NCBI GenBank assembly: GCA_900542615.1
Contig: UQOG01000001.1
Location: forward strand, 22,668-86,667
Origin: an uncultured Eubacteriales bacterium
Lineage (GTDB): Bacteria; Bacillota; Clostridia; Christensenellales; CAG-138
Direction of reading: 5' to 3'
DNA: 64,000 nt
Below the pieces are notes generated by a model, which ran no database searches, was not told where the DNA came from, and worked only from the letters and a program-made list of their open reading frames with translations. Position numbers and translations under genes: made by a program. Shown in pieces: positions 5,204 through 18,777 of this stretch. The stretch's first letter is position 1, and every line of letters starts with the position of its first letter.

Positions 5204-5548
5204 TTAGCGTCCTGGTAAGCTTGGATGGACAGAGGAACACGACAGCATGATCATAGCAATCATGTTGTCCATGTTCCTGAAACCATAGGCTCTACGGATA
5301 ATCAGCTTAATCTTGTTGTTGGTAGCCTCGATACGAGCGTTAGAAAGCCCATGGGTCGCCGCCGCAACGATAGCCTTGAAGTGCCGCTTAATCTTGAGAC
5401 GGAGTTCACGGAAGGCAGGGATTCTGCACCGTTGCGCCCATCCCATCCACTTGGTCAAGGCCTCTGAGATTTCATCCGAACCCGCCTTGAGGGCCAGCCT
5501 CAGACCTTCCTTCAGCAGGTAGGCACGATAGAGCCGGGGGTTGGCTTT
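5204..5548 (-). mobile_element. ISL3-family transposase, C-terminal fragment only
   Basis: ..NPRLYRAYLLKEGLR...SNARIEATNNKIKLIIRRAYGFRNMDN.. is the characteristic ISL3 transposase C-terminus. The upstream part of the track ORF (to 5734) has no transposase character. Confidence 0.75.
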
Positions 5549-5567
5549 CGTCCCGACTGCACATTTC

Positions 5568-5597
5568 TTGACATTTCCACCATTACTATGGTAAAAT
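5568..5597 (+). promoter_or_regulatory. sigma-70-type promoter (TTGACA, extended -10 TGgTAAAAT)
   Basis: TTGACA 5568-5573, 18-nt spacer, TAAAAT 5592-5597 preceded by TG; about 100 nt upstream of the YgjV-like gene. Confidence 0.5.
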
Positions 5598-5697
5598 ATA
5601 ATTCCAAAATTTGTGTGGATTTTTCTGGAACATCGCATCCATTTTTCGCCACGCGCCCTTGCTGGGTGTGTGGCTTTTTTCATGGGAGGACAGACGA

Positions 5698-6201
5698 ATG
5701 AATGTGCTTTATCAGCTGATCGGCTTTGGTGCAATAATTACTATGGGACTCAGCTACTGGCAGAAGGACAAGCGCATGATCTTGCTGTGGCAGGTAGTTG
5801 CCAATTTGATTTTTGCCATCCATTATGCACTACTTCACGCCCAGTCTGGTGCAGTATGTAGCTTTTTTCAAATTATTGTGTTGATACTTTTCCTATTACA
5901 GGAGCGGTTTCGTTGGAACAAGGTCGCCACGGCGATGCCTATCGCAGCGGTGTTCCTGCTGATTGCTGTGTTAACCTACGAAACGCCAGTGACGCTGCTA
6001 CCTATTTTGGCATCGTTGGTGGCCCTGCTGCCCTTCTTCCAGTCCAACAAGCGGGTGATACAGGGCGCGGGCATTGTCAGCGGCCTTTCGTGGCTGGTGT
6101 ATGTCATTGTAGTGCGTTCCTATTCCGGCATGGTGACGGAGTCCGTGCTGACGGTGATCACGGCGGCGTCCCTGCTGAAAAAGGAACCGAAAAAAAGCTA
6201 A
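5698..6201 (+). CDS. YgjV-family inner-membrane protein
   Basis: Start ATG 5698 after SD gggagga; five or six hydrophobic helices; MNVLYQLIGFGA...SYWQKDK N-terminus typical of YgjV-like proteins. Confidence 0.65.
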   Translation: MNVLYQLIGFGAIITMGLSYWQKDKRMILLWQVVANLIFAIHYALLHAQSGAVCSFFQIIVLILFLLQERFRWNKVATAMPIAAVFLLIAVLTYETPVTLLPILASLVALLPFFQSNKRVIQGAGIVSGLSWLVYVIVVRSYSGMVTESVLTVITAASLLKKEPKKS

Positions 6202-6617: not shown

Positions 6618-6863
6618 ATGAAACGCCTTGTATCTTGCGAATATAACTTCGATAACTGCTGTGTGGAACTGAAATTCACCGATGGCAGCATAATTGCGAT
6701 TGATACTATCGCCGTTGAGAACGAAGTAGCCGACAATATGTATCAGCGGTCGGAGTTGGATTGGCTGATTTACAACAAACCACTTGAATATGCACAGTTG
6801 ATATTCAGCGGCGAATTGGAAATGTACATCAAAGACAATTCAGAACATAGATTGATAGATTAA
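6618..6863 (+). CDS. small hypothetical protein (81 aa)
   Basis: SD ttggaggt 8 nt upstream of ATG; followed by a strong terminator; no family assigned. Confidence 0.5.
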   Translation: MKRLVSCEYNFDNCCVELKFTDGSIIAIDTIAVENEVADNMYQRSELDWLIYNKPLEYAQLIFSGELEMYIKDNSEHRLID

Positions 6864-6868
6864 CGTAA

Positions 6869-6912
6869 TGCCGCCCACCGGTCATCAGACCGATGGGCGG
6901 CACTTTTTCTTT
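6869..6912. terminator. bidirectional terminator between convergent genes
   Basis: 15-bp stem tgccgcccaccggtc/gaccgatgggcggca (1 mismatch), loop atca, then ctttttcttt. Confidence 0.75.
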
Positions 6913-6925
6913 CTAATGCTCAATA

Positions 6926-8830
6926 TTATTGCATTTGTTCTTCCCAAAAATTCACAGCAAGATCAAGCCACCCATCGGCAACCGTTCCTGTACCGAGACC
7001 AAAGCCGTGTCCGAGTCCGTCGTAGGCATGAAATTCAGTGGAAATACCGAGCGCAGCCATTGTGTCAATCCTCCGTTGCATGGTCTGCCAATTTGCAATA
7101 CCATCGCTCTTGCCGACACAAACAAAGGTTGGGGGATCTTCCTCGCTGTATTCGCTGTGTCCGGTATACTGCATAATCACCGCTCCGGGTTTCGGAAGAT
7201 CATCGCCGCCAAAGCCTGCAGGTCCGTATGTACCGAGATACGCCGCCATTCGTGCACCTGCCGAACCGCCCCAGACAGAATAGCAGTCAGTGCTGACGCC
7301 GAGTTTATCTGCATTCTCAAAAATAAAGCTGATGGCTCTTGCCAAGTCCTCACAGGCGGTTTGCGCTCCGGGACGGTAGATCAAAGCAAATGCGTTGTAC
7401 CCCTTCTTTGAAAGCTCCAGTGCGTGTGGAAAGCTATCGTGCATCGCACCAACGTAGGCAAAACCGCCGCCTGCATTACATACGGCAAAGGGCGCATCTT
7501 TGTCCCCCTTGAAGAAGAACAAGCCCGTATCCGCTTTGTCTGGATCGGCGGATTTTTCTGCATCGGTGTAGATGTCATAGAAGATCGCATTTCCGTTTTG
7601 CGCTTGACTTTTCATATAATTGACGATCTCCACAGTCTTATTTACGTCGATATTCGAGTACCATGTAAGGCGAAGGTCAGTAAGGGTTTCACCGCTGTAA
7701 TAGCCCTCGTCCACGGGAAAGATCAATCTTCCGTAGTCACCGAATACGGGATCGTTCACTACATCGGAAATTTTAGAGTCAGAAGTATAAGGATTGCTTG
7801 TATTCGGTGCATCGTTACCTTTGCTCCAAATGGAAAGAAGTCCGTTATAGGTATATTCCGCAGCGGCGATACCGCTGTGTGAATAGCCTTCTTTTACATA
7901 AAAGACGATATTCTCACCCTCCACAAAGTTTCCGCTTGGCTGAGCGAGCATTCCTTCGATCTGATTTGTAAAATTGTGATACTCAAAGTCATCGGTTCCC
8001 GTACAGGCAAAGATGAAGAAATCCTCGGGGCTGTGACCCGATGCCGTGACCGCCGCATCCACGTCATCTCCCTGATAATCCATCGCTCCGCTTGAAGGGA
8101 TAAAACAGCGGAACTGATCAAGGCAGTTAACGAAGGTGTACCACGTCGTGACTGAGCCCATGGAGAAGCCGCCGAAGGCTCTGTGATCACGGTCGGGGAT
8201 GGTAGCGTAGGTGCTGTCCACGGCAGGAATGAGGTCGTTTACAAGCTCGTTGTGATAATTGACGGTCAGCGTATAGAACGCGAGGGTGTAGTTTGCGCTG
8301 TCGTCTGGATTTTCGTTGTTGTAGGTGGGGCAGACCACGATTATCGGTTCGATCTCGCCGTTCTGAATGGCATGATCGATCACGTTTTTGAATCCCGACG
8401 GACGTTCGGGTGTGCCCATCTGCGTAGTCTCATTGCCCCAACCGCCATGCATATAGTAGAAGGTGTTGTATTCCTTGCTTTCATCGTAGCCGTACGGCAG
8501 ATAAACGATGGCACGCTTGGTCAGTTTGGTAGTTTTTTGCTCGTAGGTTTTGGATTCCCAAGTGTCATAGATCAACTCAACCAGTGTTCCTTGCTCGTCA
8601 GCGGCAGAAAAATACTCACTCGGGATTTCCATTAGCGCATCCGGAATGACAGGTTCGATTGCGTCCCCATCATTTGGCAGAGCCGGAGTATCTGTATCCG
8701 ATATGCTTGGCGTACTTGATGTTGATGGATTCGTGCTGTCTCCGGTTGACGTATCTTCTGCCACACAGGAGGAAAACAGCATACAAAACATTACTGCTGT
8801 CAGCAGAACAGCAAATATACGCCTTATCAT
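6926..8830 (-). CDS. exported two-domain esterase lipoprotein (putative-esterase domain + alpha/beta-hydrolase-fold-3-like domain)
   Basis: 634 aa; lipobox MLFSSC; S/T/P-rich linker. First half resembles the esterase/feruloyl-esterase family (GFSMGS nucleophile elbow). Second half has GGSAGA elbow and HGFG near the C-terminus. Confidence 0.75.
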   Translation of the reverse strand: MIRRIFAVLLTAVMFCMLFSSCVAEDTSTGDSTNPSTSSTPSISDTDTPALPNDGDAIEPVIPDALMEIPSEYFSAADEQGTLVELIYDTWESKTYEQKTTKLTKRAIVYLPYGYDESKEYNTFYYMHGGWGNETTQMGTPERPSGFKNVIDHAIQNGEIEPIIVVCPTYNNENPDDSANYTLAFYTLTVNYHNELVNDLIPAVDSTYATIPDRDHRAFGGFSMGSVTTWYTFVNCLDQFRCFIPSSGAMDYQGDDVDAAVTASGHSPEDFFIFACTGTDDFEYHNFTNQIEGMLAQPSGNFVEGENIVFYVKEGYSHSGIAAAEYTYNGLLSIWSKGNDAPNTSNPYTSDSKISDVVNDPVFGDYGRLIFPVDEGYYSGETLTDLRLTWYSNIDVNKTVEIVNYMKSQAQNGNAIFYDIYTDAEKSADPDKADTGLFFFKGDKDAPFAVCNAGGGFAYVGAMHDSFPHALELSKKGYNAFALIYRPGAQTACEDLARAISFIFENADKLGVSTDCYSVWGGSAGARMAAYLGTYGPAGFGGDDLPKPGAVIMQYTGHSEYSEEDPPTFVCVGKSDGIANWQTMQRRIDTMAALGISTEFHAYDGLGHGFGLGTGTVADGWLDLAVNFWEEQMQ

Positions 8831-9516
8831 TTCGTCAGCCCCAGACCCTCAAGCCATTCCTTTACTGCTTCTTCAGAGCCTTCGACACGATCTCCCCACA
8901 GAGAAAGGGCATCATCGCTTCTGACGGTAGAGTTGGGGCAAAGTTTTTCAATGGTATCAAGACTGGATGCGCCGCCGGTGCTGCCGTTGTGTGTAAAATA
9001 CGGAATAATCGTCTTGCCCGAAAGATCATATGCTTCAAGAAACGTCCATACGGGCATGGGCAGATCATACCACCAGATCGGAAAGCCGAGGAGAATGGTG
9101 TCATACTGTGCGATCACATCCGCTTCGGGCAGATCGGTAAGCTCGGGACGAATACCGTCATTCAGCTCGTCCTGCGCGCGCTCAAAGAGGTTTTCCCATT
9201 CGTAAGGGTCGGCAGGAGTAAGACGGAGTGTATCGGCTTCAAACTCTGCTGTAATCATTTCGGTGAGCTTATGTGTGTTGCCGGAGTTGGAGAAATAGAC
9301 GATCAAAACCTCTCCATTTCCATCTTCGCCCGCAGAGGGCGTGGAAGTATCTGCTGGATTTTCGGAATTGTCCGGTTGCTGTTCATTGTTGGTTGTGCTG
9401 TTGTTTTGTGTCGCACTGCCCTCCGTATTGCTGCTGTTGTCGGAACAACCGACACAGACGAGCAGAAGAAAACAGGCGAGCATAATAGTGAAAATTCTTT
9501 TTATCATTGATCTCAT
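8827..9516 (-). CDS. exported flavodoxin-like lipoprotein
   Basis: Lipobox LLLVCVGCS, low-complexity linker, then VLIVYFSNSGNT...LLGFPIWWYDLP (flavodoxin_4-type FMN-binding signature). The 4-nt overlap with the downstream gene suggests translational coupling. Confidence 0.75.
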   Translation of the reverse strand: MRSMIKRIFTIMLACFLLLVCVGCSDNSSNTEGSATQNNSTTNNEQQPDNSENPADTSTPSAGEDGNGEVLIVYFSNSGNTHKLTEMITAEFEADTLRLTPADPYEWENLFERAQDELNDGIRPELTDLPEADVIAQYDTILLGFPIWWYDLPMPVWTFLEAYDLSGKTIIPYFTHNGSTGGASSLDTIEKLCPNSTVRSDDALSLWGDRVEGSEEAVKEWLEGLGLTK

Positions 9517-9529
9517 TGACTCCTTATGA

Positions 9530-10438
9530 TCAGAATATGTTTACAACCCATCCGCACACAAGCGAGAATACGATGACAAACGCAATATACAGAAAGAATC
9601 GTTTTGCGCCGAGAACGATTTTCAGCGCACCTAAATTTGTAATTTTGGTGGACGGACCGGTAATCATAAAGGAAGTCGCCGCACCGACGCTCATCCCGTC
9701 CCAGAGCCATTGCTGAAGAAGCGGAATCGTACCGCCGCCGCAGACGTACAGTGGAACACCGATGGTTGCCGCCATCAGTACGCCAAAGCCCTCGTTTTCT
9801 CCGAACAGGCTGGCAAAGGCATCGGCGGGAACATACCGCTGAAACAGTGCGGACAACAGAATACCCAGCAGGAAGTACAGTCCCGTTGCCTTGATGTTGC
9901 GCCAGAGATTTTTCAGAAACCGCAGAAGCAGATTCGGATCGGTATCTTTGTTTTTCGGTGCAGAAAATCCGCTGAAATTGAAAAAGTCCTTGCCGCGATA
10001 GAAAAAGTGAACACAAAGTCCGGCGGCAATTCCACACAGAAAACAGGTAATGACTCTAATCAGCACAAGTTCCGTACCAAGCGCGGTGCTGTACATAATA
10101 AGCTGCGGATTGAGCAGGATGGACGCCATCATAAACGAGGCAAGCCAGTCCTGCCGCATCCCTTTTTCGGAAAACGATGCGGCAAGCGGAATCGTGCCGT
10201 ACATACACAGCGGTGATAAAATTCCGAGGATGCAGGCGGGGACGATGCCGAACAGTCCCCACCGTTTGTCCTTCATTCCGGCGAACAGATTATGGATGCG
10301 TTCCTTCGCAAAGACCGAAATCAGCGACCCGAGCACCATGCCCAGCACCCAGTACGAGAAAATCTGCCGCAGTTGGAGGTCAAAATAGTACCACAGGTAG
10401 ATGAACTCCCGCTGCAGAATTTCAAAAAGATTACTCAT
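9530..10438 (-). CDS. predicted permease (DUF318/ArsP-like, two-repeat membrane protein)
   Basis: 302 aa, about 8 hydrophobic helices, GTIPLAASF and CGGGTIPL repeated motifs typical of this permease family. Confidence 0.65.
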   Translation of the reverse strand: MSNLFEILQREFIYLWYYFDLQLRQIFSYWVLGMVLGSLISVFAKERIHNLFAGMKDKRWGLFGIVPACILGILSPLCMYGTIPLAASFSEKGMRQDWLASFMMASILLNPQLIMYSTALGTELVLIRVITCFLCGIAAGLCVHFFYRGKDFFNFSGFSAPKNKDTDPNLLLRFLKNLWRNIKATGLYFLLGILLSALFQRYVPADAFASLFGENEGFGVLMAATIGVPLYVCGGGTIPLLQQWLWDGMSVGAATSFMITGPSTKITNLGALKIVLGAKRFFLYIAFVIVFSLVCGWVVNIF

Positions 10439-11597
10439 TGACTACAACCAGCTTGTACGCACGGTTTCCAAGCCCGATTTCCTCTCCGTGCTCCAATGTG
10501 TCCTCACCGCCGACACCCTCAATTCTGCGGATCATGGATTCCGCACCTTCAGACTGGTAGATCAGATCGACACACGCCTGGTCAAGTGCGACAGGATCAG
10601 TGGAAGCCAGAATGCCGATGTCATGGATGTCGGGAGCGGAAGGACGCGCCGTGCAGTCGCAGTCCACGGACAGGTTATTCATAACGCTGATAAACAGAAT
10701 GTTTCCGTCCAGTGCATCCACAACAGACTTGCCTGCTTCTGCCATGGAGTCCATGAACGTGGGAGAATCACCGCCCCAGGGACTGGTGTTGCTCTTGCCG
10801 CCGGTGTGAATAAGGCACTTGCCCTCAGTAGATGCAATGCCGATAGAGATATTCTTGATCGCACCGCCGAAGCCGCCCATCATATGTCCCTTGAAATGGC
10901 TGAGCACGAGCATACCGTCAAATTCTGCAAATCGTGCGCCGACAAGGTTTTCCTTCAGCACACTTCCGCCTTCCACGGGAATGGAGAGCGAACCGGTTTC
11001 ATCCATGATGACCACATCCGCAATATCGGTAAAGCCGTGATCCTTGGCAAGCTGATAGTGCATAGCGGTCTGCGCACGGCTGCCGCCGTATGCGGTATTG
11101 CTTTCGACAATGGTGCCGTTTACGTGCTGCACAAGCTCCTTGATGAAATCGGGACGCAGGTGGTTGGACTGATCGGATTCACCGGTATGTACCTTTACTG
11201 CCGTATTCTCGCCGGTGATCTCAACGCCAAGAGCTTCATAGATTGCCATCAATGCTTCGGGTGTGATCTCAGAGGTGTAATAAACAACACTTTCCGCATC
11301 CGCATCATAATTTTTCAAATCTGCCGTCTTGATGGTGGCACCGCCGTTGGTAACAATTTCATCCACCGCTTCTACGGGCGTGTCGGGATTCTTGGAGGTG
11401 TCAGTTGTTCCGTTGGAATCAGATGTGCCCTCGGGTGCAGTCGTTGTGCCGTCCGTGGCAGTATCATTGTTACCCGATGTGTTTTCGGTGTTCGACGAAG
11501 TATCCGCAGGGTCGCTTGTGTTATTGCAAGCTGTGCAGGCAATCAGCACAACAAGTGCAAGCATAAGCGCCAAAACCTTTTTGATGTTATTTCGCAT
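10431..11597 (-). CDS. DUF362-domain lipoprotein
   Basis: Lipobox VVLIACTAC, T/S/N-rich linker, DUF362-like core (..SHFKGHMMGGFGGAIKNISIG..); overlaps both neighbours by 8 and 11 nt. Confidence 0.7.
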   Translation of the reverse strand: MRNNIKKVLALMLALVVLIACTACNNTSDPADTSSNTENTSGNNDTATDGTTTAPEGTSDSNGTTDTSKNPDTPVEAVDEIVTNGGATIKTADLKNYDADAESVVYYTSEITPEALMAIYEALGVEITGENTAVKVHTGESDQSNHLRPDFIKELVQHVNGTIVESNTAYGGSRAQTAMHYQLAKDHGFTDIADVVIMDETGSLSIPVEGGSVLKENLVGARFAEFDGMLVLSHFKGHMMGGFGGAIKNISIGIASTEGKCLIHTGGKSNTSPWGGDSPTFMDSMAEAGKSVVDALDGNILFISVMNNLSVDCDCTARPSAPDIHDIGILASTDPVALDQACVDLIYQSEGAESMIRRIEGVGGEDTLEHGEEIGLGNRAYKLVVVNE

Positions 11598-12243
11598 TTT
11601 TCTTTGACTCCTTTGTGATTAACAATATTTTTTTGATGATATGGGTAAGCATCACGAACAAAAGCGAGATGCACATCGTTTCAAAGAGATATTCAATCAA
11701 ATGCTTATCGTAATCAAACCATTTGAATTCGGTAAGCAGGAACAGTTCTTCATAGAAACGGCGGATGATAAAGTGGTAAACACCGTAAGCGGACGCTGCA
11801 CCCAATACGGCATAAAAGCCAACCTTTGCCGCTTTCTTTTTCGGAGTACGAATGTGCATACTGAGGTGCATACTCATGAACACAAAACACCACGCCGTGC
11901 TCGCCATGTGCAGCTTCCGCCCGAACATCATCATCCCGGGGATGCGGAAATCCTGAAATACCACGCCCGAGATCATCAGCGCGGACAACATACAGCCGAT
12001 GAAGCTGAGCATCAGCAGGAAGTTGATTGCCGTCTGTATGATTCTCTGCGGAGGATATTTCCCCTTAAACAGTGCTTTGTACCATCGATAGTTCAGAATG
12101 TTATGGGCAAGAAAGCAGACGAACAGTCCCACGCCGAGCCATTCGTGGAGTGCGCCCGAAGCAAGATGCTGCCCCATCAGCAGCAGAAACAGTACAAACA
12201 TGAAGATGTCAATGCAAATTTTCACGATTCTGATTGGTTTCAT
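11587..12243 (-). CDS. DUF4405-domain (cytochrome-b-like) membrane protein
   Basis: 218 aa, 4-5 TM helices, conserved His residues in helices (HEWLGVGLF..FLAHNILN). Confidence 0.65.
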   Translation of the reverse strand: MKPIRIVKICIDIFMFVLFLLLMGQHLASGALHEWLGVGLFVCFLAHNILNYRWYKALFKGKYPPQRIIQTAINFLLMLSFIGCMLSALMISGVVFQDFRIPGMMMFGRKLHMASTAWCFVFMSMHLSMHIRTPKKKAAKVGFYAVLGAASAYGVYHFIIRRFYEELFLLTEFKWFDYDKHLIEYLFETMCISLLFVMLTHIIKKILLITKESKKNAK

Positions 12244-12254
12244 GACACACTCCC

Positions 12255-13808
12255 TCAGTTGTTTTCATAAATATCCGTCAGCCAGCGGTCAAATTCGGGA
12301 ACCCAGTCAGAATTTTTATTGCCTGCGCCAAAACCGTGAGGCTGCCCCTCGTAGCAATGTTCCTCGACAGATACGCCTGCTTCACGCACGGCATCGGCGT
12401 TTGCCATGAACTGATGATAGAACGGATCTTCCGTACCGTAGGCGTAGAAAGTTGGCGGAAGATTGGACTGTCTGAACTTCTCAACATCGGTAGAGCCTAC
12501 GGAAAGTCTGCCATAGAAAGAATAAATATGCCCAATAGCAGCGGAATCTGCAGAAACAAGGTCAAGCGTGTCGGGAATATAGTTTTCATCCAGCGCAGCA
12601 GGAGTTACATCACCTTTCCAGTTGAGTACCTGCTCACCGCAGAGAATACCGCCTGCGGAATAACCGACCACGGCAATATCGTTCGGGTCAATGTCATACT
12701 CATCTGCATAGTAACGCACATACCGTACTGCACGGGCAAGGTCGAGTGCTCCTTCCTCCTGTGTGAACGGACGAAGCCGATACTGTACCACGAAACACTG
12801 ATACCCAAGCTCATTCAGTTTATCGGCAGTAGGATATGTGTCGCCCCAATTCCCACGAAATACGAACGCACCGCCTGCACAAAGCATGACAGCACCCTTG
12901 ACCTCAACGCCTTTCTTCACAGGACGGTATTCCATGTGCGGTTTGAAGTCCTCCGGATCGTTCCATGAGGACGAATACTCTCTCGGACAGGGCATTTTAC
13001 CTTCTTCCCACAGATAGATGGTCTGTGCTTCGCTCGGTGTAGGAACTGCCATATTGAATGCAGGAGTGTTTTCCGATTCCGAGGATGTATCGTCCACGGT
13101 ATTCGGATCGTGGTACAGTCCCAAATCCTTCACCCAATCAACAATGTCCTGTTCGGCATCCTGTATTACATCGCGGGAGATAGACAGACCTCGAATCACT
13201 TCGGCATTCGGCTCCAGTTCGGCAATGGTTTCGTTGGTACGGGAAAATCCGCTGCCGCCGTGAGTGTTAAAGGTGATGATCTTCTTGCCCGAAAAATCAT
13301 AGGTATCGAAAAAGGTGTACAGGATCATCGGCAGATCAGCCCACCAGTTGGGATAGCCGATAAACACGGTATTATATTCATCAAAGTTCTCAATGCTGTC
13401 CTTGATCGCCGGACGGGCATTCTCGCTTTTCTCCTGTTGGGCATACTCTACCAGCGCATCGTGATCGGTGGTATACGGCACTTCCGGTTCAATGCGGAAG
13501 ATGTCCGCACCGGTGTTCTCCGCGATCACATACGCCATGTACTGGGTGTTGCCAAGAGTTTCGCCGCCTATTACAACAGAACTGTTGTCCTTATTGTCCG
13601 GCATGGAAAAGTAAACAACAAGCGTTTTGCCTGTATCGACAGTTGCTGTATTGGAATTCATATTATCGGATGTCGTGTTGCTGCTTCCAGGATAATTTTC
13701 TGGGGAAGATGGATTTTTTGTATCAGCCCCACTATCGGTACAAGCTGCAAAGGACAGCAGACAAGCACCGCACAGCAGCAGACTGAGAAATTTTCTGAAT
13801 CTTCCCAT
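12255..13808 (-). CDS. exported flavodoxin-like / alpha/beta-hydrolase fusion lipoprotein
   Basis: Lipobox LLSFAAC; N-terminal half TLVVYFSMPDN...FIGYPNWWADLP (flavodoxin_4-like); C-terminal half with GYSAGG nucleophile elbow and HGFG. Confidence 0.75.
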   Translation of the reverse strand: MGRFRKFLSLLLCGACLLSFAACTDSGADTKNPSSPENYPGSSNTTSDNMNSNTATVDTGKTLVVYFSMPDNKDNSSVVIGGETLGNTQYMAYVIAENTGADIFRIEPEVPYTTDHDALVEYAQQEKSENARPAIKDSIENFDEYNTVFIGYPNWWADLPMILYTFFDTYDFSGKKIITFNTHGGSGFSRTNETIAELEPNAEVIRGLSISRDVIQDAEQDIVDWVKDLGLYHDPNTVDDTSSESENTPAFNMAVPTPSEAQTIYLWEEGKMPCPREYSSSWNDPEDFKPHMEYRPVKKGVEVKGAVMLCAGGAFVFRGNWGDTYPTADKLNELGYQCFVVQYRLRPFTQEEGALDLARAVRYVRYYADEYDIDPNDIAVVGYSAGGILCGEQVLNWKGDVTPAALDENYIPDTLDLVSADSAAIGHIYSFYGRLSVGSTDVEKFRQSNLPPTFYAYGTEDPFYHQFMANADAVREAGVSVEEHCYEGQPHGFGAGNKNSDWVPEFDRWLTDIYENN

Positions 13809-13812
13809 AGGC

Positions 13813-14370
13813 TTACTTCAAAGCCGCACCGTCACGGAAAGCGTTGCCGACCTTTTCTCCGATCACATGATATGCGGCGTTTGCTCCGTCAAAAATAACA
13901 GGACGCAGCTTTTCAACCGAAATGTTGCCGTTTTTGCCGAGGATGCTTTCATCTGCGCTCACATTTACGATCTCTCCGAACATATAATGGTTTTCGGAAT
14001 CGTAGCTGATGAGTTTACATTCCAGCGTCATGGGTAATTCTTCAATAACAGGTGCATCCACATATTCGCTTTTTACGGTGTGGAATCCCGATTTCTTCAT
14101 TTTTTCCGGCTCGTCTTTTGCGGAAACAAGTCCCACATAGTCGCAGGCAATGACCGTATCCGCGGTTCCCATGCTGACGGTAAACGCTTTTCGAGCCAGA
14201 ATGTTATCGGTGGATTTGTGGCTGCTGATGCACATGAAAATCTTGTTTCCGCCAGCCACACCGCCCCATGCTGCGTTCATGGCATCAGCATTACCTTTTT
14301 CATCGTAGCTCGCAATAATAAATACCGCCTGCGGATACAAAATCGGTTTCGCACCAAAATTCTTTCTCAT
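13813..14370 (-). CDS. flavin reductase-like protein (island copy)
   Basis: Track ORF to 14385; start set at MRKNFG (ATG 14370) behind ggagga. Collinear with 3622-4182 along the whole length but with AT-richer codons. Confidence 0.8.
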   Translation of the reverse strand: MRKNFGAKPILYPQAVFIIASYDEKGNADAMNAAWGGVAGGNKIFMCISSHKSTDNILARKAFTVSMGTADTVIACDYVGLVSAKDEPEKMKKSGFHTVKSEYVDAPVIEELPMTLECKLISYDSENHYMFGEIVNVSADESILGKNGNISVEKLRPVIFDGANAAYHVIGEKVGNAFRDGAALK

Positions 14371-14393
14371 AATTGGTTCCTCCATTTTATTGA

Positions 14394-15119
14394 TTACTTC
14401 TTGTTTTTCGGCTCATAACGAAGCCAGAGGGTATCACCATCCAAAACATCTGCGCCAAGCAGCTTGAATGCGATGGGGTCTGTCTGCGGATGGAACACAG
14501 CTTTATCAAACACCGTAGCCGAATCTGTACCGCCGTCCGTCAGCGGAGCGATAATCAGACTAAGCTCGTCAATCAGTCCTGCCTGCAGGAAGGTATAGTC
14601 CACGATCCCGCCGCCGCAGATCATCAGTTTTTCGATGTGAAACAGTCTGTACATCTTTTCCATCACCAGTTCGCAATCGAGGGTATCCTTTCCCGCGAAG
14701 ATATAGGAAATATCGAAGCTATGCAGATAAGCAATATAATCATCTGACACGTTTTCACACAGCACCGCAATCGGATGCACACGGGGACGACCTTTCTTTT
14801 CGATATACTTGCTCTCCCATGCGACAGTTCCGTTGACGTCGATGCAAATGAAATACCGCTCAACATCTGTTTCTGCAAGATAGTCGGTACGAGGGCATGT
14901 TTCACTTGTTTTCGGAAGTTCACCGACATAACCTCCTGCATAGGTTTCTGCCATTGTCGTTGCACCGTAAAGAGTTGCTTTGCAGTCATATTCTGTACGG
15001 ATACGATTGGACTCTGCAAGACAGGGACGCAGTTCGGGTGCGCCGAAGTATTCGCCGTCGATCTTACCGTCCACGGAACTGACGATATGACAGATTACAT
15101 AAGGTCTGTTCATAAGCAT
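14394..15119 (-). CDS. RibD_C / dihydrofolate-reductase-like reductase
   Basis: HIVSSVDGKI...LMICGGGIVDY..LIDELSLIIAP pattern of the RibD C-terminal/DHFR-like family; start ambiguous (15125 TTG, 15119 ATG or 15113 ATG). Confidence 0.7.
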   Translation of the reverse strand: MLMNRPYVICHIVSSVDGKIDGEYFGAPELRPCLAESNRIRTEYDCKATLYGATTMAETYAGGYVGELPKTSETCPRTDYLAETDVERYFICIDVNGTVAWESKYIEKKGRPRVHPIAVLCENVSDDYIAYLHSFDISYIFAGKDTLDCELVMEKMYRLFHIEKLMICGGGIVDYTFLQAGLIDELSLIIAPLTDGGTDSATVFDKAVFHPQTDPIAFKLLGADVLDGDTLWLRYEPKNKK

Positions 15120-15157
15120 CACCAATTCTTCTTTTCCTTGGAGCTGTCATGCTGCTT

Positions 15158-16006
15158 TTAACGTTCTTCCACCATCCGGCAGAACCATTCCACCATGTTC
15201 GGGTCGGTATGGGAGAAGAAAGAGGACTGCTTTTTGTCAAGCCCCGCGATGATTGCCATATCCTCGTCCGCCAGTGCGAAGTCGAATACGTTGAAGTTTT
15301 CCTCCATGCGTTCAATGTGTGTGGACTTGGGAATCACCACAACGCCGCGCTGAATGTGCCAGCGGAGCATGACCTGCGCAGACGTTTTGCCGTACTTTTC
15401 GCCGATTTCTTTCAGCTCGGGCAGCTCAAACATACCGCCACGTCCTTCGCCGAACGGTGCCCATGCTTCCACCTGCACACCGTACTTTTCGTGCCAGCTG
15501 AGATTTTCAGTCTGCTGATGATGCGGATGCACCTCGATCTGGTTGACCATCGGCTTGATGCGGGCGAAGTTGGCAATGTCGATCATGCGGTCGGTGTAGA
15601 AGTTGGAGATGCCGATAGCACGGATCACGCCTTCCGCATACAGATCCTCCAGCGCGCGATAGGCACCGTAAACATCGCTGAAGGGCTGATGGAGCAGGCA
15701 GAGGTCGAGATAGTTCGTCTGCAGCTTGCGCATGGATTCCAGCACGGACTTTTTGCATTCCTCGTAGCCGTAATGCTCGATCCAGACCTTGGTGGTGAGG
15801 AAGATTTCCTCACGTGGGATGCCGCTCTTTACAAGCGCACTGCCGACTTCTTCCTCGTTGAAATAGCTCTGTGCCGTGTCGATGGAGCGATAGCCGACCT
15901 TCAGAGCGTCAAGTACGCAGCGTTCGCATTCGTCCTTTCGTACCTGATACACGCCGTAGCCGAGAATGGGCATTTTTACGCCGTTGTGAAGGGTTACATA
16001 TTCCAT
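15158..16006 (-). CDS. aldo/keto reductase
   Basis: 282 aa behind SD ggaggt; GYRSIDTAQSY, LLHQP and IPKS motifs of the AKR superfamily. Confidence 0.88.
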   Translation of the reverse strand: MEYVTLHNGVKMPILGYGVYQVRKDECERCVLDALKVGYRSIDTAQSYFNEEEVGSALVKSGIPREEIFLTTKVWIEHYGYEECKKSVLESMRKLQTNYLDLCLLHQPFSDVYGAYRALEDLYAEGVIRAIGISNFYTDRMIDIANFARIKPMVNQIEVHPHHQQTENLSWHEKYGVQVEAWAPFGEGRGGMFELPELKEIGEKYGKTSAQVMLRWHIQRGVVVIPKSTHIERMEENFNVFDFALADEDMAIIAGLDKKQSSFFSHTDPNMVEWFCRMVEER

Positions 16007-16029
16007 ATTTTTTTACCTCCGAAGAAATT

Positions 16030-16143
16030 ATGATTGATCTGCTTCATCACCGCAGTTGGTGTGATATATAGTTTTTCCGCCGCTTTCGAAAAACTACCTT
16101 GCTCTGTAACTGCAATAAATGTATCAAGTTGTGGGTTGTGCAT
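16030..16143 (-). pseudogene. LysR-family regulator, N-terminal HTH remnant
   Basis: MHNPQLDTFIAVTEQGSFSKAAEKLYITPTAVMKQI is a LysR wHTH; the ORF then degenerates and runs into the AKR start. Confidence 0.65.
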
Positions 16144-16162
16144 GATTACTCTGTTCCGCCGC

Positions 16163-16193
16163 TTGACAAACAGCTCTTTCAGATACATAATAT
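16163..16193 (+). promoter_or_regulatory. candidate promoter of the merR-family gene
   Basis: TTGACA 16163-16168, N17, CATAAT 16186-16191 (alternatively N19 TAATAT); about 70 nt upstream of ATG 16263. Confidence 0.5.
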
Positions 16194-16194
16194 T

Positions 16195-16225
16195 GTTATA
16201 CAAGTTAAAGTCAACTTTAAGTCAA
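16195..16225 (-). promoter_or_regulatory. MerR-type promoter/operator facing the AKR operon
   Basis: On the minus strand: TTGACT (16225-16220), 19-nt spacer, TATAAC (16200-16195). The spacer contains the perfect dyad TTAAAGT-N2-ACTTTAA (16205-16220). Confidence 0.65.
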
Positions 16226-16262: not shown

Positions 16263-16709
16263 ATGTTTTATACAGTCGGAGAAATGGCAAAGCGTTTGGG
16301 TGTTGCACCGTCCACGCTTCGTTTTTATGATAAGGAAGGGTTGCTCCCGTTTGTAGAGCGTTCAGACGGAGGCATTCGTGTATTCAAGGATTCGGACTAC
16401 GAGTGGCTGATGATCATTGAATGTCTGAAGAAAACGGGGATGCCGCTGAAGGACATCCGGGAATTTATCGTGATGGCGATCAAAGGAGATGATACGATTG
16501 ACGGACGGCTTGCGCTGATTACGAAGCAGAAGGAATCGGTTGAGCAGCAGATTGCGGTACTTGAAGAAGTGCATCGCGTGCTGGAATTCAAGCAGTGGTA
16601 TTATGAAACGGCGAAAAAAGAAGGTACAACCGATGTGCCGAGACGTATGCCGCCGGAAGAGCTGCCGGAAGAGTTCAGAGAGATCAGACGGAAACTCCGT
16701 GGTGAATGA
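16263..16709 (+). CDS. MerR-family transcriptional regulator
   Basis: YTVGEMAKRLGVAPSTLRFYDKEGLL N-terminal HTH plus coiled-coil dimerisation region. Confidence 0.88.
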   Translation: MFYTVGEMAKRLGVAPSTLRFYDKEGLLPFVERSDGGIRVFKDSDYEWLMIIECLKKTGMPLKDIREFIVMAIKGDDTIDGRLALITKQKESVEQQIAVLEEVHRVLEFKQWYYETAKKEGTTDVPRRMPPEELPEEFREIRRKLRGE

Positions 16710-16786: not shown

Positions 16787-17246
16787 CTGAAGAAAGGTGT
16801 CAAACTGCATTTTTACAGTTTGGGTATCATTTTCGAGGAAAATATACGGGTGTCCAGAGGGGGGGCGGGTCTCCGGTGGAGACCTCAAAATGCGAAGCGT
16901 TTTGAAACACTGACCGAGCCGGCAGGCGAGACGCATCCCCTTGGCTCTGGGTTTCCAATAGGGGCGAGAAGCACCCCTGTTGGCACACGATTTTGCTTGC
17001 AAAGTCTAGTGTGTTATACCTTTTGCGACCGCTGACGCTGGAAAGGGGCTGTCCCACGCCAGACAGACACTTTTCGGCGGCAGCAGAACAGGCGGATTTT
17101 GTGGGCTATAAGCTACAAAAGACAAGGAATTTGCAACGAGCAAAATCCGGCTGTTCGGGTGTAGTTGGCATAGGAAATCTTGAAGCTGTGCGGAAAGATT
17201 TTCTGTGCCAACGGGGGCGCAAGAGGTATATAAAAACCCGCCGCAG

Positions 17247-18777
17247 CGATCAGCTCCCGTATCTGTATCCCTACTATCAGCGGGATAAAGCGGAGGGACG
17301 CTTGGACGACGCCAAGGCGTTGGAATTGATTGAAGGGCTATTCATCAAGTTTAACCATATCGTCTACCTGCGCAGCTCCGGAAGCGCCAAGTATTTTGCC
17401 GGCTTTCCCATCGGCTTTAACGTGGCCGTTGGCGGCCAGGGCCCGGACGGGCAGGACGCCTCCAATGCATTGTCCTATCTATTTCTTACCGCCCAGGAGC
17501 AGCTGGGGCTGCCCCAGCCCAACCTTTCCGCCCGGGTGCATAGGAATTCCCCGGAACCGTTTTTGCGCCGCTGCGCCCAGGTGATCGGCAAAGGGAGCGG
17601 TATGCCCCAGCTGTTCAACGACGAGGCGGTGATCCCCGCCCTGATGGAAAAAGGCATTTCCCAAGAAGACGCCAGGAATTACGCCATTGTGGGGTGCGTG
17701 GAGCTATCCACCATGGGGAACAGCCTTGGGTGGAGCGATGCGGCCATGTTCAATTTGGTAAAAGCCCTGGAGCTGGCATTAAACGATGGGAAATGTATGC
17801 TGAGCGGGGTTCAGATGGGAGCGCATACCGGCACCCTGGCGGATCATGCCACCTATGGGGATGTGGAACGGGCTTTCGCCGCCCAGATCGATTATTTCTT
17901 TGACCGGATGCTGGCCTGCTGCGACGTGGTGGAAAAAGCCCATGGTATGCTGCTGCCCTCGTCCTTCCTGTCCGGCGTGATACGGGATTGCCTGGAAAAG
18001 GGGGTGGACGTTACCCTGGGCGGCGCCCATTATAACCTATCCGGCATCCAGGCGATTCAGTGCGCCAATGTGGCGGACAGCCTGGCTGCCTTAAAGGCCT
18101 TGGTGTACGATGAACAACGGGTGGATCGGAAGGCGCTCTATGAAGCCTTGCGCCGGGATTTTGCCGGCGAGGAACGGCTGCGCCAGACCCTGCTGAACCG
18201 GGCGCCGAAATATGGAAACGATGTGGCCTGGGTGGATGAGATCGCCCATACGTGGATCCGGTTTTTCGCAGACAAGCTAAAGGGCCATACCAATGCCCGG
18301 GGCGGCATTTATCACGCAGGATTATATACGGTTTCCGCCCACGTGCCCATGGGGCAAAATGTGGGCGCCACCCCGGATGGGCGTCATGCCAGAGCCCCCT
18401 TGGCGGACGGGGGTATGTCCGCGGTATACGGCCGGGACCTGCAAGGGCCTACCGCTTTGCTAAAATCCGTTTCCCGGGTGGATTCCAAGCTGGGAAGCAA
18501 CGGCACCCTCTTAAATATGAAGTTCCTGCCCCAGCTGTTTCAGAGCGAAACCGGCATTTGCAAATTCGTCGAATTCATACGGGCTTTTATTCGCCTGCGC
18601 ATCTCCCACGTGCAGTTCAACGTGGTCAACCGGGAGGCGCTGCTCTCCGCCCAGGCCAATCCGGAAGCCTTCCGGAGCCTAACCATACGGGTGGCAGGGT
18701 ATACCGCGTATTTTACGGAGCTGGCCCGGGACCTGCAAAATGAGATCATTGAAAGAACCAGCTACGGGGATGTATGA
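17247..18777 (+). pseudogene. glycyl-radical enzyme (PFL-like), 5'-truncated; roughly the C-terminal 510 codons retained
   Basis: Family similarity begins at ..DQLPYLYPYYQRDKAEGRL... Catalytic GCVE and glycyl-radical motif RVAGYTAYF are present. The about 85 upstream in-frame codons of track ORF 16993-18777 have no GRE character, and the expected ~250-300 N-terminal residues are absent. Confidence 0.75.

Follow-up and report, generated by a model that had tools for sequence, protein, structure and literature searches.

The window analysed here is a 64,000-nucleotide stretch of contig UQOG01000001.1 from an uncultured Eubacteriales bacterium. The subject of this report is an operon in the window that encodes cytoplasmic reductases, a predicted DUF4405 membrane cytochrome and four predicted lipoproteins, two of which contain flavodoxin domains of the Flavodoxin_4 family. 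Nine co-oriented open reading frames (ORFs) occupy the minus strand between positions 6926 and 16006, where a first-pass annotation of this DNA had placed them. Its description of tightly packed same-strand genes was borne out when the ORFs and junction lengths were read from the sequence: the junctions within the operon consist of gaps of 32, 8, 4, 11 and 13 nt and overlaps of 11, 8 and 4 nt. Domains of the operon proteins were assigned with Pfam and NCBIfam models, which recovered every domain named in that annotation. The features of the locus, in the direction of operon transcription, are as follows.

16263-16709, plus strand: MerR-family regulator, 148 aa (Pfam MerR_1/MerR/MerR-DNA-bind)
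16195-16225, minus strand: predicted MerR-type promoter, read directly from the sequence
15949-16143, minus strand: remnant of a LysR-type helix-turn-helix (HTH) protein, about 64 aa, in the operon leader, overlapping the start of the next gene
15158-16006, minus strand: aldo-keto reductase (AKR; Aldo_ket_red, PF00248, E 3e-51)
14394-15125, minus strand: RibD_C reductase (PF01872, E 7e-13)
13813-14385, minus strand: Flavin_Reduct protein, flavoredoxin-like (PF01613; PDB 2D5M)
12255-13808, minus strand: lipoprotein with fused Flavodoxin_4 and Abhydrolase_3/BD-FAE domains (Pfam, NCBIfam)
11587-12243, minus strand: DUF4405 membrane protein (PF14358)
10431-11597, minus strand: DUF362 lipoprotein (PF04015, E 6e-44)
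9530-10438, minus strand: ArsP_1 (formerly DUF318) permease (PF03773, E 6e-40)
8827-9516, minus strand: small Flavodoxin_4 lipoprotein (PF12682, E 2e-25)
6926-8830, minus strand: lipoprotein with an Esterase domain of carbohydrate esterase family 1 (CE1) and a BD-FAE domain (Pfam Esterase and BD-FAE)
6866-6903, minus strand: GC-rich hairpin past the final stop codon, read from the sequence

Part of this gene content has been described before. Huang, Meheust, Barquera and Light (2024, mSystems 9:e00375-24; bioRxiv 10.1101/2024.03.13.584918; PMC11334425) reported gene clusters for DUF4405, termed a 'flavinylation-associated cytochrome'. The DUF4405 gene is co-localised with apbE in Firmicutes and Proteobacteria, and these clusters often encode a flavinylated Flavodoxin_4 protein and a flavin transporter (PMC11334425). 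Models of DUF4405 show six transmembrane (TM) helices and four central histidines, as in MsrQ and PepSY-like cytochromes, and a purified DUF4405 protein from Oscillospiraceae binds haem b (PMC11334425). Where an insertion separates beta1 from alpha1 in Flavodoxin_4 proteins, ApbE flavinylates a Ser/Thr of a motif resembling [S/T]GA[S/T] (PMC11334425). Consequently, the remark in the first-pass annotation that no characterised system of this composition was known no longer stands, as clusters of DUF4405 and exported Flavodoxin_4, with haem b and flavinylation, had been published in 2024.

The DUF4405 protein of the window has 218 aa and about six TM helices, with a weak additional match to Ni_hydr_CYTB/cytochrome b561. 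Among 19 homologues with 35-89% identity, no substitution occurs at H33, H47, H112, H126 or H130. One predicted helix carries H33 and H47, a second carries H112 and H126, and the histidines of each pair are spaced 14 residues apart. The protein has four conserved, centrally placed histidines; together with the PF14358 match, these four invariant residues agree with the earlier proposal of a haem-b-type membrane protein in the operon. It is predicted to be a di-haem b cytochrome, in which, by the positive-inside rule, H33 and H112 would form the outer pair and H47 and H126 the inner pair.

An exported Flavodoxin_4 protein lies on each side of this gene: a 517-aa lipoprotein 11 nt upstream and a 229-aa lipoprotein 2 kb downstream. 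The genome has no Flavodoxin_4 gene beyond these two and no second DUF4405 gene, and all three lie on the island described below. The small flavodoxin (226-229 aa) has a short beta1-alpha1 loop, YFSNSGNT, and matches PDB 4ICI with E 5e-21. It retains Y17, S19, G22, N23, R66, P67, P89, W91, W92 and the T/G/S loop, all of them fixed or almost fixed across the family alignment. The 517-aa fusion protein consists of a signal peptide, a linker, a Flavodoxin_4 domain, a disordered linker and an alpha/beta-hydrolase domain with a GYSAG nucleophile motif. Its flavodoxin domain scores 185 bits with the PRK06934 flavodoxin model of NCBIfam, above the cut-off, and its loop (YFSMPDNKDNSSVVIGGETLGNT) resembles that of cytoplasmic long-loop members (YYSRKGENYWNGSIKNLKKGNT). 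Both domains retain the YFS...GNT phosphate loop, ARP, P-x-WW and the T-x-G-S loop, and both align with the Bacteroides proteins 4ICI, 4J8P and 3KLB, which bind flavin mononucleotide (FMN); the 3KLB structure holds FMN. The expectation that residues for FMN binding would be present is therefore supported for both domains by these alignments: S-x-x-G-N-T, P-x-W-W and T-x-G-S occur as in 3KLB, and FMN occupancy is predicted. An AlphaFold2 (AF2) model of the fusion protein contains two confident domains (predicted local distance difference test, pLDDT, 88; predicted TM-score, pTM, 0.64), joined by a linker with pLDDT <50 at model residues 182-192, where model numbering begins at protein residue 55. 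In Foldseek searches the flavodoxin domain retrieved 4J8P, 4ICI and 3KLB (TM-score 0.74-0.87, with 0.87 for 4J8P), and the structure nearest to the hydrolase domain was the acetyl esterase 6A6O.

Four operon products begin with an N-terminal signal peptide ending in Cys, followed by a low-complexity linker of S, T, N, P and D. The earlier claim that all four lipoboxes are unambiguous goes too far. Read from the sequence with the rule [LVI][ASTVI][GAS]C, acceptable lipoboxes are found in the fusion protein (N-terminus MGRFRKFLSLLLCGACLLSFAAC, lipobox FAAC), in DUF362 (MRNNIKKVLALMLALVVLIACTAC, LIAC, with a long T/S/N-rich linker) and in the 634-aa esterase (MIRRIFAVLLTAVMFCMLFSSC, FSSC). The small flavodoxin, with the N-terminus M(RSM)IKRIFTIMLACFLLLVCVGC, offers VCVGC or an early MLAC, which are not canonical (Cys at -3). 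The layout of signal peptide, Cys and linker is retained in homologues down to about 30% identity, and for this reason the export of the four predicted lipoproteins is considered well supported by sequence. Automatic gene calls on public contigs start the fusion protein at Met50 and thereby lose its signal peptide. The longer form was accepted because the upstream ATG sits 4 nt past the preceding stop codon, an arrangement of translational coupling, and because homologues retain the signal peptide.

The association of these genes was examined in a locus scan that used one genome per species and 10 closer DUF4405 sequences as queries, and that yielded 24 loci. A Flavodoxin_4 protein with a signal peptide lies within 3 kb of DUF4405 in 18-19 of these species loci, the range arising because the lipobox of L033 is missed by a cruder filter. 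The remaining loci comprise 3-4 contigs too short to judge and two distant metagenome-assembled genomes (MAGs) labelled 'Rickettsiales'. Among loci of sufficient length, all but two or three show the pairing. The pairing of DUF4405 with exported Flavodoxin_4 thus recurs outside the source genome, as had been anticipated. Other components of the operon recur as neighbours as well. A divergent MerR gene is present in L010, L015-L019 and also L046, while L033 has a MerR gene nearby on the same strand. AKR genes occur in L010, L014, L015 and L031, RibD_C genes in L010, L013, L014 and also L045 and L047, and Flavin_Reduct genes in L010, L011, L014 and L047, directly adjoining DUF4405 in L014. FMN_red genes were seen in L019 and L027, and esterase lipoproteins in L010, L011, L014, L015 and L021. 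DUF362 together with ArsP_1 is found in three of the 24 DUF4405 loci (L010, L021, L023). Further recurrent neighbours are iron-containing alcohol dehydrogenases (Fe-ADH), short-chain dehydrogenases/reductases (SDR), Cyclophil_like2, metallo-beta-lactamase-fold proteins (MBL), hexapeptide acetyltransferases and nitroreductases. Among the recurrent neighbours, AKR, Fe-ADH, SDR, nitroreductase, hexapeptide acetyltransferase and MBL are detoxification enzymes of the carbonyl/quinone type.

The fusion of flavodoxin and hydrolase is found in a few other clusters defined at 50% identity (P0205, P0206, P0210), and the two parts are encoded by separate adjacent genes in L014 and L015. Such a fusion that is split into adjacent genes elsewhere, a Rosetta-stone relationship, argues for a functional link between flavodoxin and hydrolase. 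A related cluster in C. difficile (L027, L028, L030) encodes Fe-ADH, an exported Flavodoxin_4 with an EAVSSAS insertion, FMN_red, an exported cyclophilin-like protein, DUF4405 and a metallo-beta-lactamase-fold protein. It provides a genetically tractable model for the flavinylated form.

The double esterase of 634 aa combines a CE1 feruloyl-esterase-like domain (GFSMG) with a BD-FAE-like domain (GGSAG). Residues 104-331 match 1GKK/1GKL, the feruloyl esterase of C. thermocellum XynY, with E 2e-42. The CE1 domain is thus homologous to a characterised feruloyl-esterase module and has a GxSxG motif, and a feruloyl substrate is predicted; the earlier idea of esterase action on hydroxycinnamate esters gains support from this match. 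The second domain and the fused hydrolase belong to the BD-FAE/Abhydrolase_3 types, and each of the three hydrolase domains has a GxSxG motif and a C-terminal His motif. On the cytoplasmic side, the protein named a flavin reductase in the first-pass annotation (185-190 aa) does have the Flavin_Reduct fold; its nearest relative, however, is the flavoredoxin of Desulfovibrio (PDB 2D5M, E 3e-28), and by sequence it is a candidate for the cytoplasmic electron donor. The AKR (282 aa) is cytoplasmic and DkgA-like, scoring 258 bits with the DkgA model, below the 425-bit cut-off. Its gene has a good Shine-Dalgarno sequence, GGAGG. The RibD_C protein (about 239-243 aa) is a reductase of the DHFR-like, NADPH-dependent type.

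The MerR gene is divergent from the nine-gene operon. Upstream of the operon, on the minus strand, TTGACT (16225-16220) and TATAAC (16200-16195) are separated by a 19-nt spacer, and this spacer contains the perfect dyad TTAAAGT-TG-ACTTTAA. The spacer falls in the range of 19-20 bp and carries the dyad operator of MerR-activated promoters, and the arrangement reads as the classical architecture of this promoter type. A consensus promoter scanner reports only spacers of 16-18 nt and is hence blind to the 19-nt site; its match at 16214-16187 is a different pair of hexamers. The best NCBIfam match of the regulator is NmlR at 74 bits, below the equivalog cut-off of 175 bits. The regulator resembles NmlR and AdhR, and its only Cys, at residue 54, stands in the position of the sensing Cys of these two proteins. 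MerR regulons of the AdhR/NmlR type in Firmicutes mediate the response to carbonyl electrophiles. The leader ORF with the LysR remnant is called as PF00126 HTH_1 in L005-L007, and intact LysR genes stand beside DUF362-ArsP_1 in L046 and L047. At the other end, the hairpin at 6866-6903 is the probable end of the operon as judged from the sequence; it is without a long U tract, and the terminator scanner made no call there.

The operon is horizontally acquired and lies on a low-GC island rather than in native sequence. The G+C content is 0.46-0.53 between 5 and 17 kb and 0.60-0.67 on both sides; as a single figure the island has 0.49, compared with 0.60-0.65. At the left edge (5204-5734, minus strand) there is a C-terminal fragment of an ISL3 transposase covering profile positions 139-240 of 240. 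At the right edge (16993-18777, plus strand) there is a glycyl-radical enzyme whose match to a pyruvate formate-lyase-like profile begins at position 281 of 647, which indicates that its N-terminal third was lost to the insertion. The metagenome contig L004 shows this truncated junction too. A full-length DUF4405 match was found in none of seven genomes of the same genus, one of which (G005) gave a weak match limited to part of the protein (E 5e-6, residues 110-206). Near-identical copies were seen on no fewer than six metagenome contigs and in a single MAG of Clostridiales (L010). Relative to L010, the ratio of nonsynonymous to synonymous substitution rates (dN/dS) is 0.02-0.17 across all nine genes, so that these are under purifying selection. 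The synonymous divergence (dS) is 0.018 for RibD_C, 0.03 for the fusion, 0.28-0.30 for AKR and permease, and 0.53 for DUF4405. The left part of the island also encodes a membrane protein of the Imp-YgjV family (5611-6201, plus strand) and a DUF6061 protein (6618-6863, plus strand). The host is apparently unable to make tetrapyrroles and yet carries a predicted haem-b protein on this acquired island.

The DUF362 lipoprotein (388 aa) adopts a LarA-like two-domain fold in its AF2 model (pLDDT 89, pTM 0.91). A sequence search of the PDB with this protein gave no match, and the only significant PDB relatives in Foldseek were LarA-type racemases (2YJG, 5HUQ, 9EID, 7S91; E 8e-7 to 1e-3). This fold fits the Pfam clan CL0471 (PMC11770544). 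The earlier suggestion that DUF362 is a redox partner is not sustained by the model, since the LarA fold that it predicts is not among the folds recognised for electron transfer. A signal peptide with a terminal Cys is shared by all 31 aligned homologues; in the same alignment HFKGH, DCDC and C273 are invariant and C192 is present in at least 90% of the sequences. The lipoprotein subfamily includes at least 8,000 scored homologues, and exported proteins of the type DUF362-CBM9-dockerin are on record from lignocellulose enrichments (PMC5742341). The host encodes adjacent LarB-like (AIRC) and LarC (Ni_insertion) proteins (G000:C69, L049 4354-6422). These do not discriminate for or against a nickel-pincer cofactor in DUF362, because a genuine LarA homologue is also present in the host (G000:C14, L051). 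A second, cytoplasmic DUF362 protein of the host (G000:C52, L050 4468-5751) contains an inserted 4Fe-4S dicluster domain. Structural variation was seen in related copies of the gene: in L010 DUF362 and the permease, which overlap by 8 nt in the window, are separated by about 575 bp (7356-7932), and in L004 (9847-11391) DUF362 retains 131 aa, after which comes a 399-aa gene on the reverse strand, probably an insertion.

The ArsP_1 permease (302 aa) overlaps DUF362 by 8 nt. Membership in either the SO_0444 or the SaoE family of metal-efflux proteins was rejected, as the scores are far below the cut-offs (118 bits for a cut-off of 300 and 77 bits for one of 325) and the CSC motif is absent from the permease sequence, where the corresponding motifs are SPLCMYGTIP and PLYVCGGGTIP. 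ArsP_1 stands beside DUF362 in all 11 loci with DUF362 (L010, L021, L023, L034-L037, L044-L047), usually with the 8-nt overlap. The neighbours of this pair are drawn from a pool of Flavodoxin_4, BD-FAE, RibD_C, AKR, Flavin_Reduct, Cyclophil_like2, Fe-ADH, MerR/LysR and glycoside hydrolase family 3 (GH3). In L044 (8100-9234), an S-component of the energy-coupling factor (ECF) type and a small nucleoside/nucleotide-kinase-like protein are encoded between DUF362 and ArsP_1, and a COesterase/BD-FAE gene comes after them. NCBIfam did not identify this S-component as RibU-like, and a link to flavin traffic remains speculative. The pair might represent an undescribed extracytoplasmic enzyme system in which the permease, translationally coupled to DUF362 and bearing a Cys motif, supplies the surface enzyme with an exported cofactor of nucleotide or organometallic type, a nickel-pincer-like compound and a flavin being candidates. 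DUF362 would then be either a terminal catalyst acting on esterase-released acids or a loader of the flavodoxins, functionally replacing ApbE and the flavin transporter of the published system. This proposal is given little credence at present.

With moderate confidence, the operon as a whole is read as an electrophile-inducible system for reduction and hydrolysis at the cell surface. The inducer, the electron donor, the direction in which electrons move and the terminal substrate are inferred as follows. The MerR regulator, with its single Cys, probably responds to electrophiles and would activate the long-spacer promoter. Electrons from NAD(P)H or reduced ferredoxin would pass to the flavoredoxin-like FMN protein, or to another reduced flavin protein, and from there to the inner haem of DUF4405. 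They would cross the membrane through the two bis-His haems, H47/H126 inside and H33/H112 outside. The outer haem would reduce non-covalent FMN in the two lipoprotein-anchored Flavodoxin_4 domains at the outer face of the membrane. The surface esterases, with one CE1 domain and two BD-FAE/acetyl-esterase-like domains, one of the latter fused to flavodoxin, would release phenolic acids or acetate from plant esters. Once reduced, the flavodoxins at the surface would pass electrons to quinones or other phenolics in an oxidised, electrophilic state before these enter the cell, while AKR and the RibD_C reductase would handle carbonyl compounds that reach the cytoplasm. The terminal chemistry may be a detoxification, reductive or hydrolytic, whose targets are quinones or phenolic esters from plants. 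DUF362 and ArsP_1 make up a conserved module of two genes in their own right, one that accompanies exported flavodoxins. The relay from a haem-b protein to outside flavodoxins, already proposed in the first-pass annotation, agrees with the His and FMN motifs, the signal peptides and the conserved neighbourhood, and it corresponds to the model published in 2024.

Several observations weigh against this interpretation. No terminal reductase domain was found among the domains of the cluster. ALAD (HemB) and ferrochelatase were not found in the host genome, which is 96.7% complete; consequently, haem b must be scavenged or the cytochrome is inactive in this host. The predicted disorder of the linker in the fusion protein means that no joint active site of flavodoxin and hydrolase is evident. 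In L034-L037 and L045, DUF362-ArsP_1 occurs with exported Flavodoxin_4 and no DUF4405 lies within 7-8 kb, so that the cytochrome is not obligatory for that module. The range of dS between genes shows that the island is a recombining mosaic and points to exchange among island variants. The cluster encodes no ECF-type flavin transporter, its only transporter being the ArsP_1 permease, and no apbE gene is present in the cluster or, by blastp, in the 24 related loci. The flavinylation insertion and the [ST][SG]A[ST] motif are absent from both flavodoxin domains of the window. A Sec-exported, non-flavinylated apoflavodoxin would need to acquire FMN and retain it outside the cell, for which this class offers no known precedent.

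Because the insertion is absent and no ApbE is encoded in the cluster or the 24 loci, the operon is taken to be an ApbE-independent variant, presumably with non-covalent FMN. Flavinylation of the window flavodoxins was rejected on account of the absent motif. The only ApbE of the genome is encoded on another contig (G000:C6), beside unrelated genes. The flavodoxins of C. difficile, L023, L026 and L029 do carry the insertion, in the form ...DAVTSASIN... or ...EAVSSASVN.... Two further motifs, SSAS in L033 and TGAT in L013, which fall outside the insertion, were put down to chance. A 395-aa ORF upstream of the C. difficile flavodoxin was considered as a possible ApbE and rejected, as it encodes Fe-ADH.

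Three other explanations need to be weighed against surface reduction and hydrolysis. The operon may be an accreted island of independent detoxification genes that share one promoter and form no electron relay, with DUF4405 in an unrelated role and the exported flavodoxin folds acting as non-redox binders of ligands such as flavins or phenolics, or as scaffolds for the esterases. The mosaic dS of 0.018-0.53, the ISL3 fragment and the LysR remnant are in line with accretion, as are the differing composition of the loci, the occurrence of exported Flavodoxin_4 without DUF4405 nearby and the inability of the host to make haem. However, the adjacency of DUF4405 and exported Flavodoxin_4 spans 30-89% DUF4405 identity and many taxa, the FMN-site motifs are strictly retained, and published work shows that a DUF4405 contains haem and that flavodoxins of this class contain flavin (PMC11334425). 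An accreted island is judged unlikely, though more probable than the two readings that follow.

The cluster could also be a respiratory module in which esterase-released hydroxycinnamates, or another extracellular acceptor, take up electrons and NAD+ is regenerated as in flavin-based extracellular electron transfer. The surface enzymes resembling feruloyl and acetyl esterases, the GH3 genes that flank related modules and the description of DUF4405/Flavodoxin_4 in a context of extracytosolic electron transfer (PMC11334425) are consistent with respiration. Against it, neither a terminal reductase of the FAD_binding_2/urocanate-reductase type nor a quinone-linked dehydrogenase is present in the cluster, and control of the MerR/NmlR type with AKR, Fe-ADH and SDR neighbours is typical of stress regulons. 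Moreover, flavodoxins have no known ene-reductase activity. Respiration is judged an improbable function. A further alternative, with a similarly small chance of being correct, is that the surface flavodoxins protect or repair the envelope in the manner of MsrQ/Fre-MsrP, by reduction of thiols or methionines that have become oxidised, of reactive oxygen species or of Fe(III), and that the esterases are unrelated cargo. It draws on the structural likeness of DUF4405 to cytochromes of the MsrQ type (PMC11334425) and on the cytoplasmic flavin protein encoded beside DUF4405. Nevertheless, the cluster has no exported MsrP-like, thioredoxin-like or peroxidase partner, and the esterases recur with the module, even as a fusion.

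Gut Clostridia encounter abundant plant phenolic esters, quinones and other electrophiles, and the description of extracytoplasmic redox chemistry in monoderm anaerobes is just beginning. The locus and its relatives point to a common, ApbE-independent conduit of DUF4405 and surface flavodoxins that is mobile, stress-regulated and linked to esterases, including by gene fusion. They also draw attention to an unstudied pair with a very wide distribution, the exported LarA-fold DUF362 protein and the ArsP_1 permease. If surface reduction and hydrolysis is the correct interpretation, these proteins become candidates for quinone and phenolic reduction at cell surfaces in the gut, and the question arises of how a non-covalent flavoprotein matures outside the cell. 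The conduit itself will be little surprise to a specialist; the maturation of the flavodoxins and the function of the LarA-fold lipoprotein are what the locus makes testable.

Several known systems share parts of this arrangement. The AdhR/NmlR MerR regulons of Firmicutes have a single-Cys activator, a long-spacer promoter and aldehyde-reducing targets in common with the operon. In contrast, the window regulator scores below the NmlR equivalog cut-off, and its regulon adds exported proteins and a cytochrome. The feruloyl-esterase module of XynY and the acetyl esterase 6A6O share the alpha/beta-hydrolase fold, the GxSxG motif and an extracellular location with the window domains. The latter, however, are lipoprotein-anchored and joined to a second esterase or a flavodoxin, and are not accompanied by a xylanase, carbohydrate-binding or dockerin module. 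DUF362 has its two-domain fold in common with the LarA lactate racemase superfamily (CL0471) of nickel-pincer nucleotide enzymes, with a Foldseek probability of 1.0. It differs from LarA in its low identity (12-14%), a TM-score of about 0.45, its motifs (HFKGH, DCDC), its export by Sec and its predicted lipid anchor.

In E. coli MsrQ-Fre, a haem-b membrane protein is fed by a cytosolic flavin reductase, and the acceptor is the molybdoenzyme MsrP. The sequence of a cytosolic flavin protein, a di-haem b membrane protein and an extracytoplasmic acceptor is the same as that proposed for the window. The families, however, are unrelated in sequence (DUF4405 against FRD-like MsrQ, Flavin_Reduct against FNR-like Fre), and the acceptor in the window would be a flavodoxin lipoprotein. 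The closest likeness is to the clusters of Huang et al. (2024), which share with the window the four-His DUF4405 of about six TM helices, the adjoining exported Flavodoxin_4, a Firmicutes host and the implied outward transfer of electrons. Unlike those clusters, the window cluster is without apbE, an ECF-type flavin transporter and the flavinylation insertion, and it adds the esterase fusion and partners, DUF362-ArsP_1, AKR, RibD_C, flavoredoxin and MerR control. The principle and its three-part core have thus been known since 2024, and the window locus is an ApbE-independent, MerR-regulated, island-borne and esterase-linked or -fused version of it with DUF362-ArsP_1.

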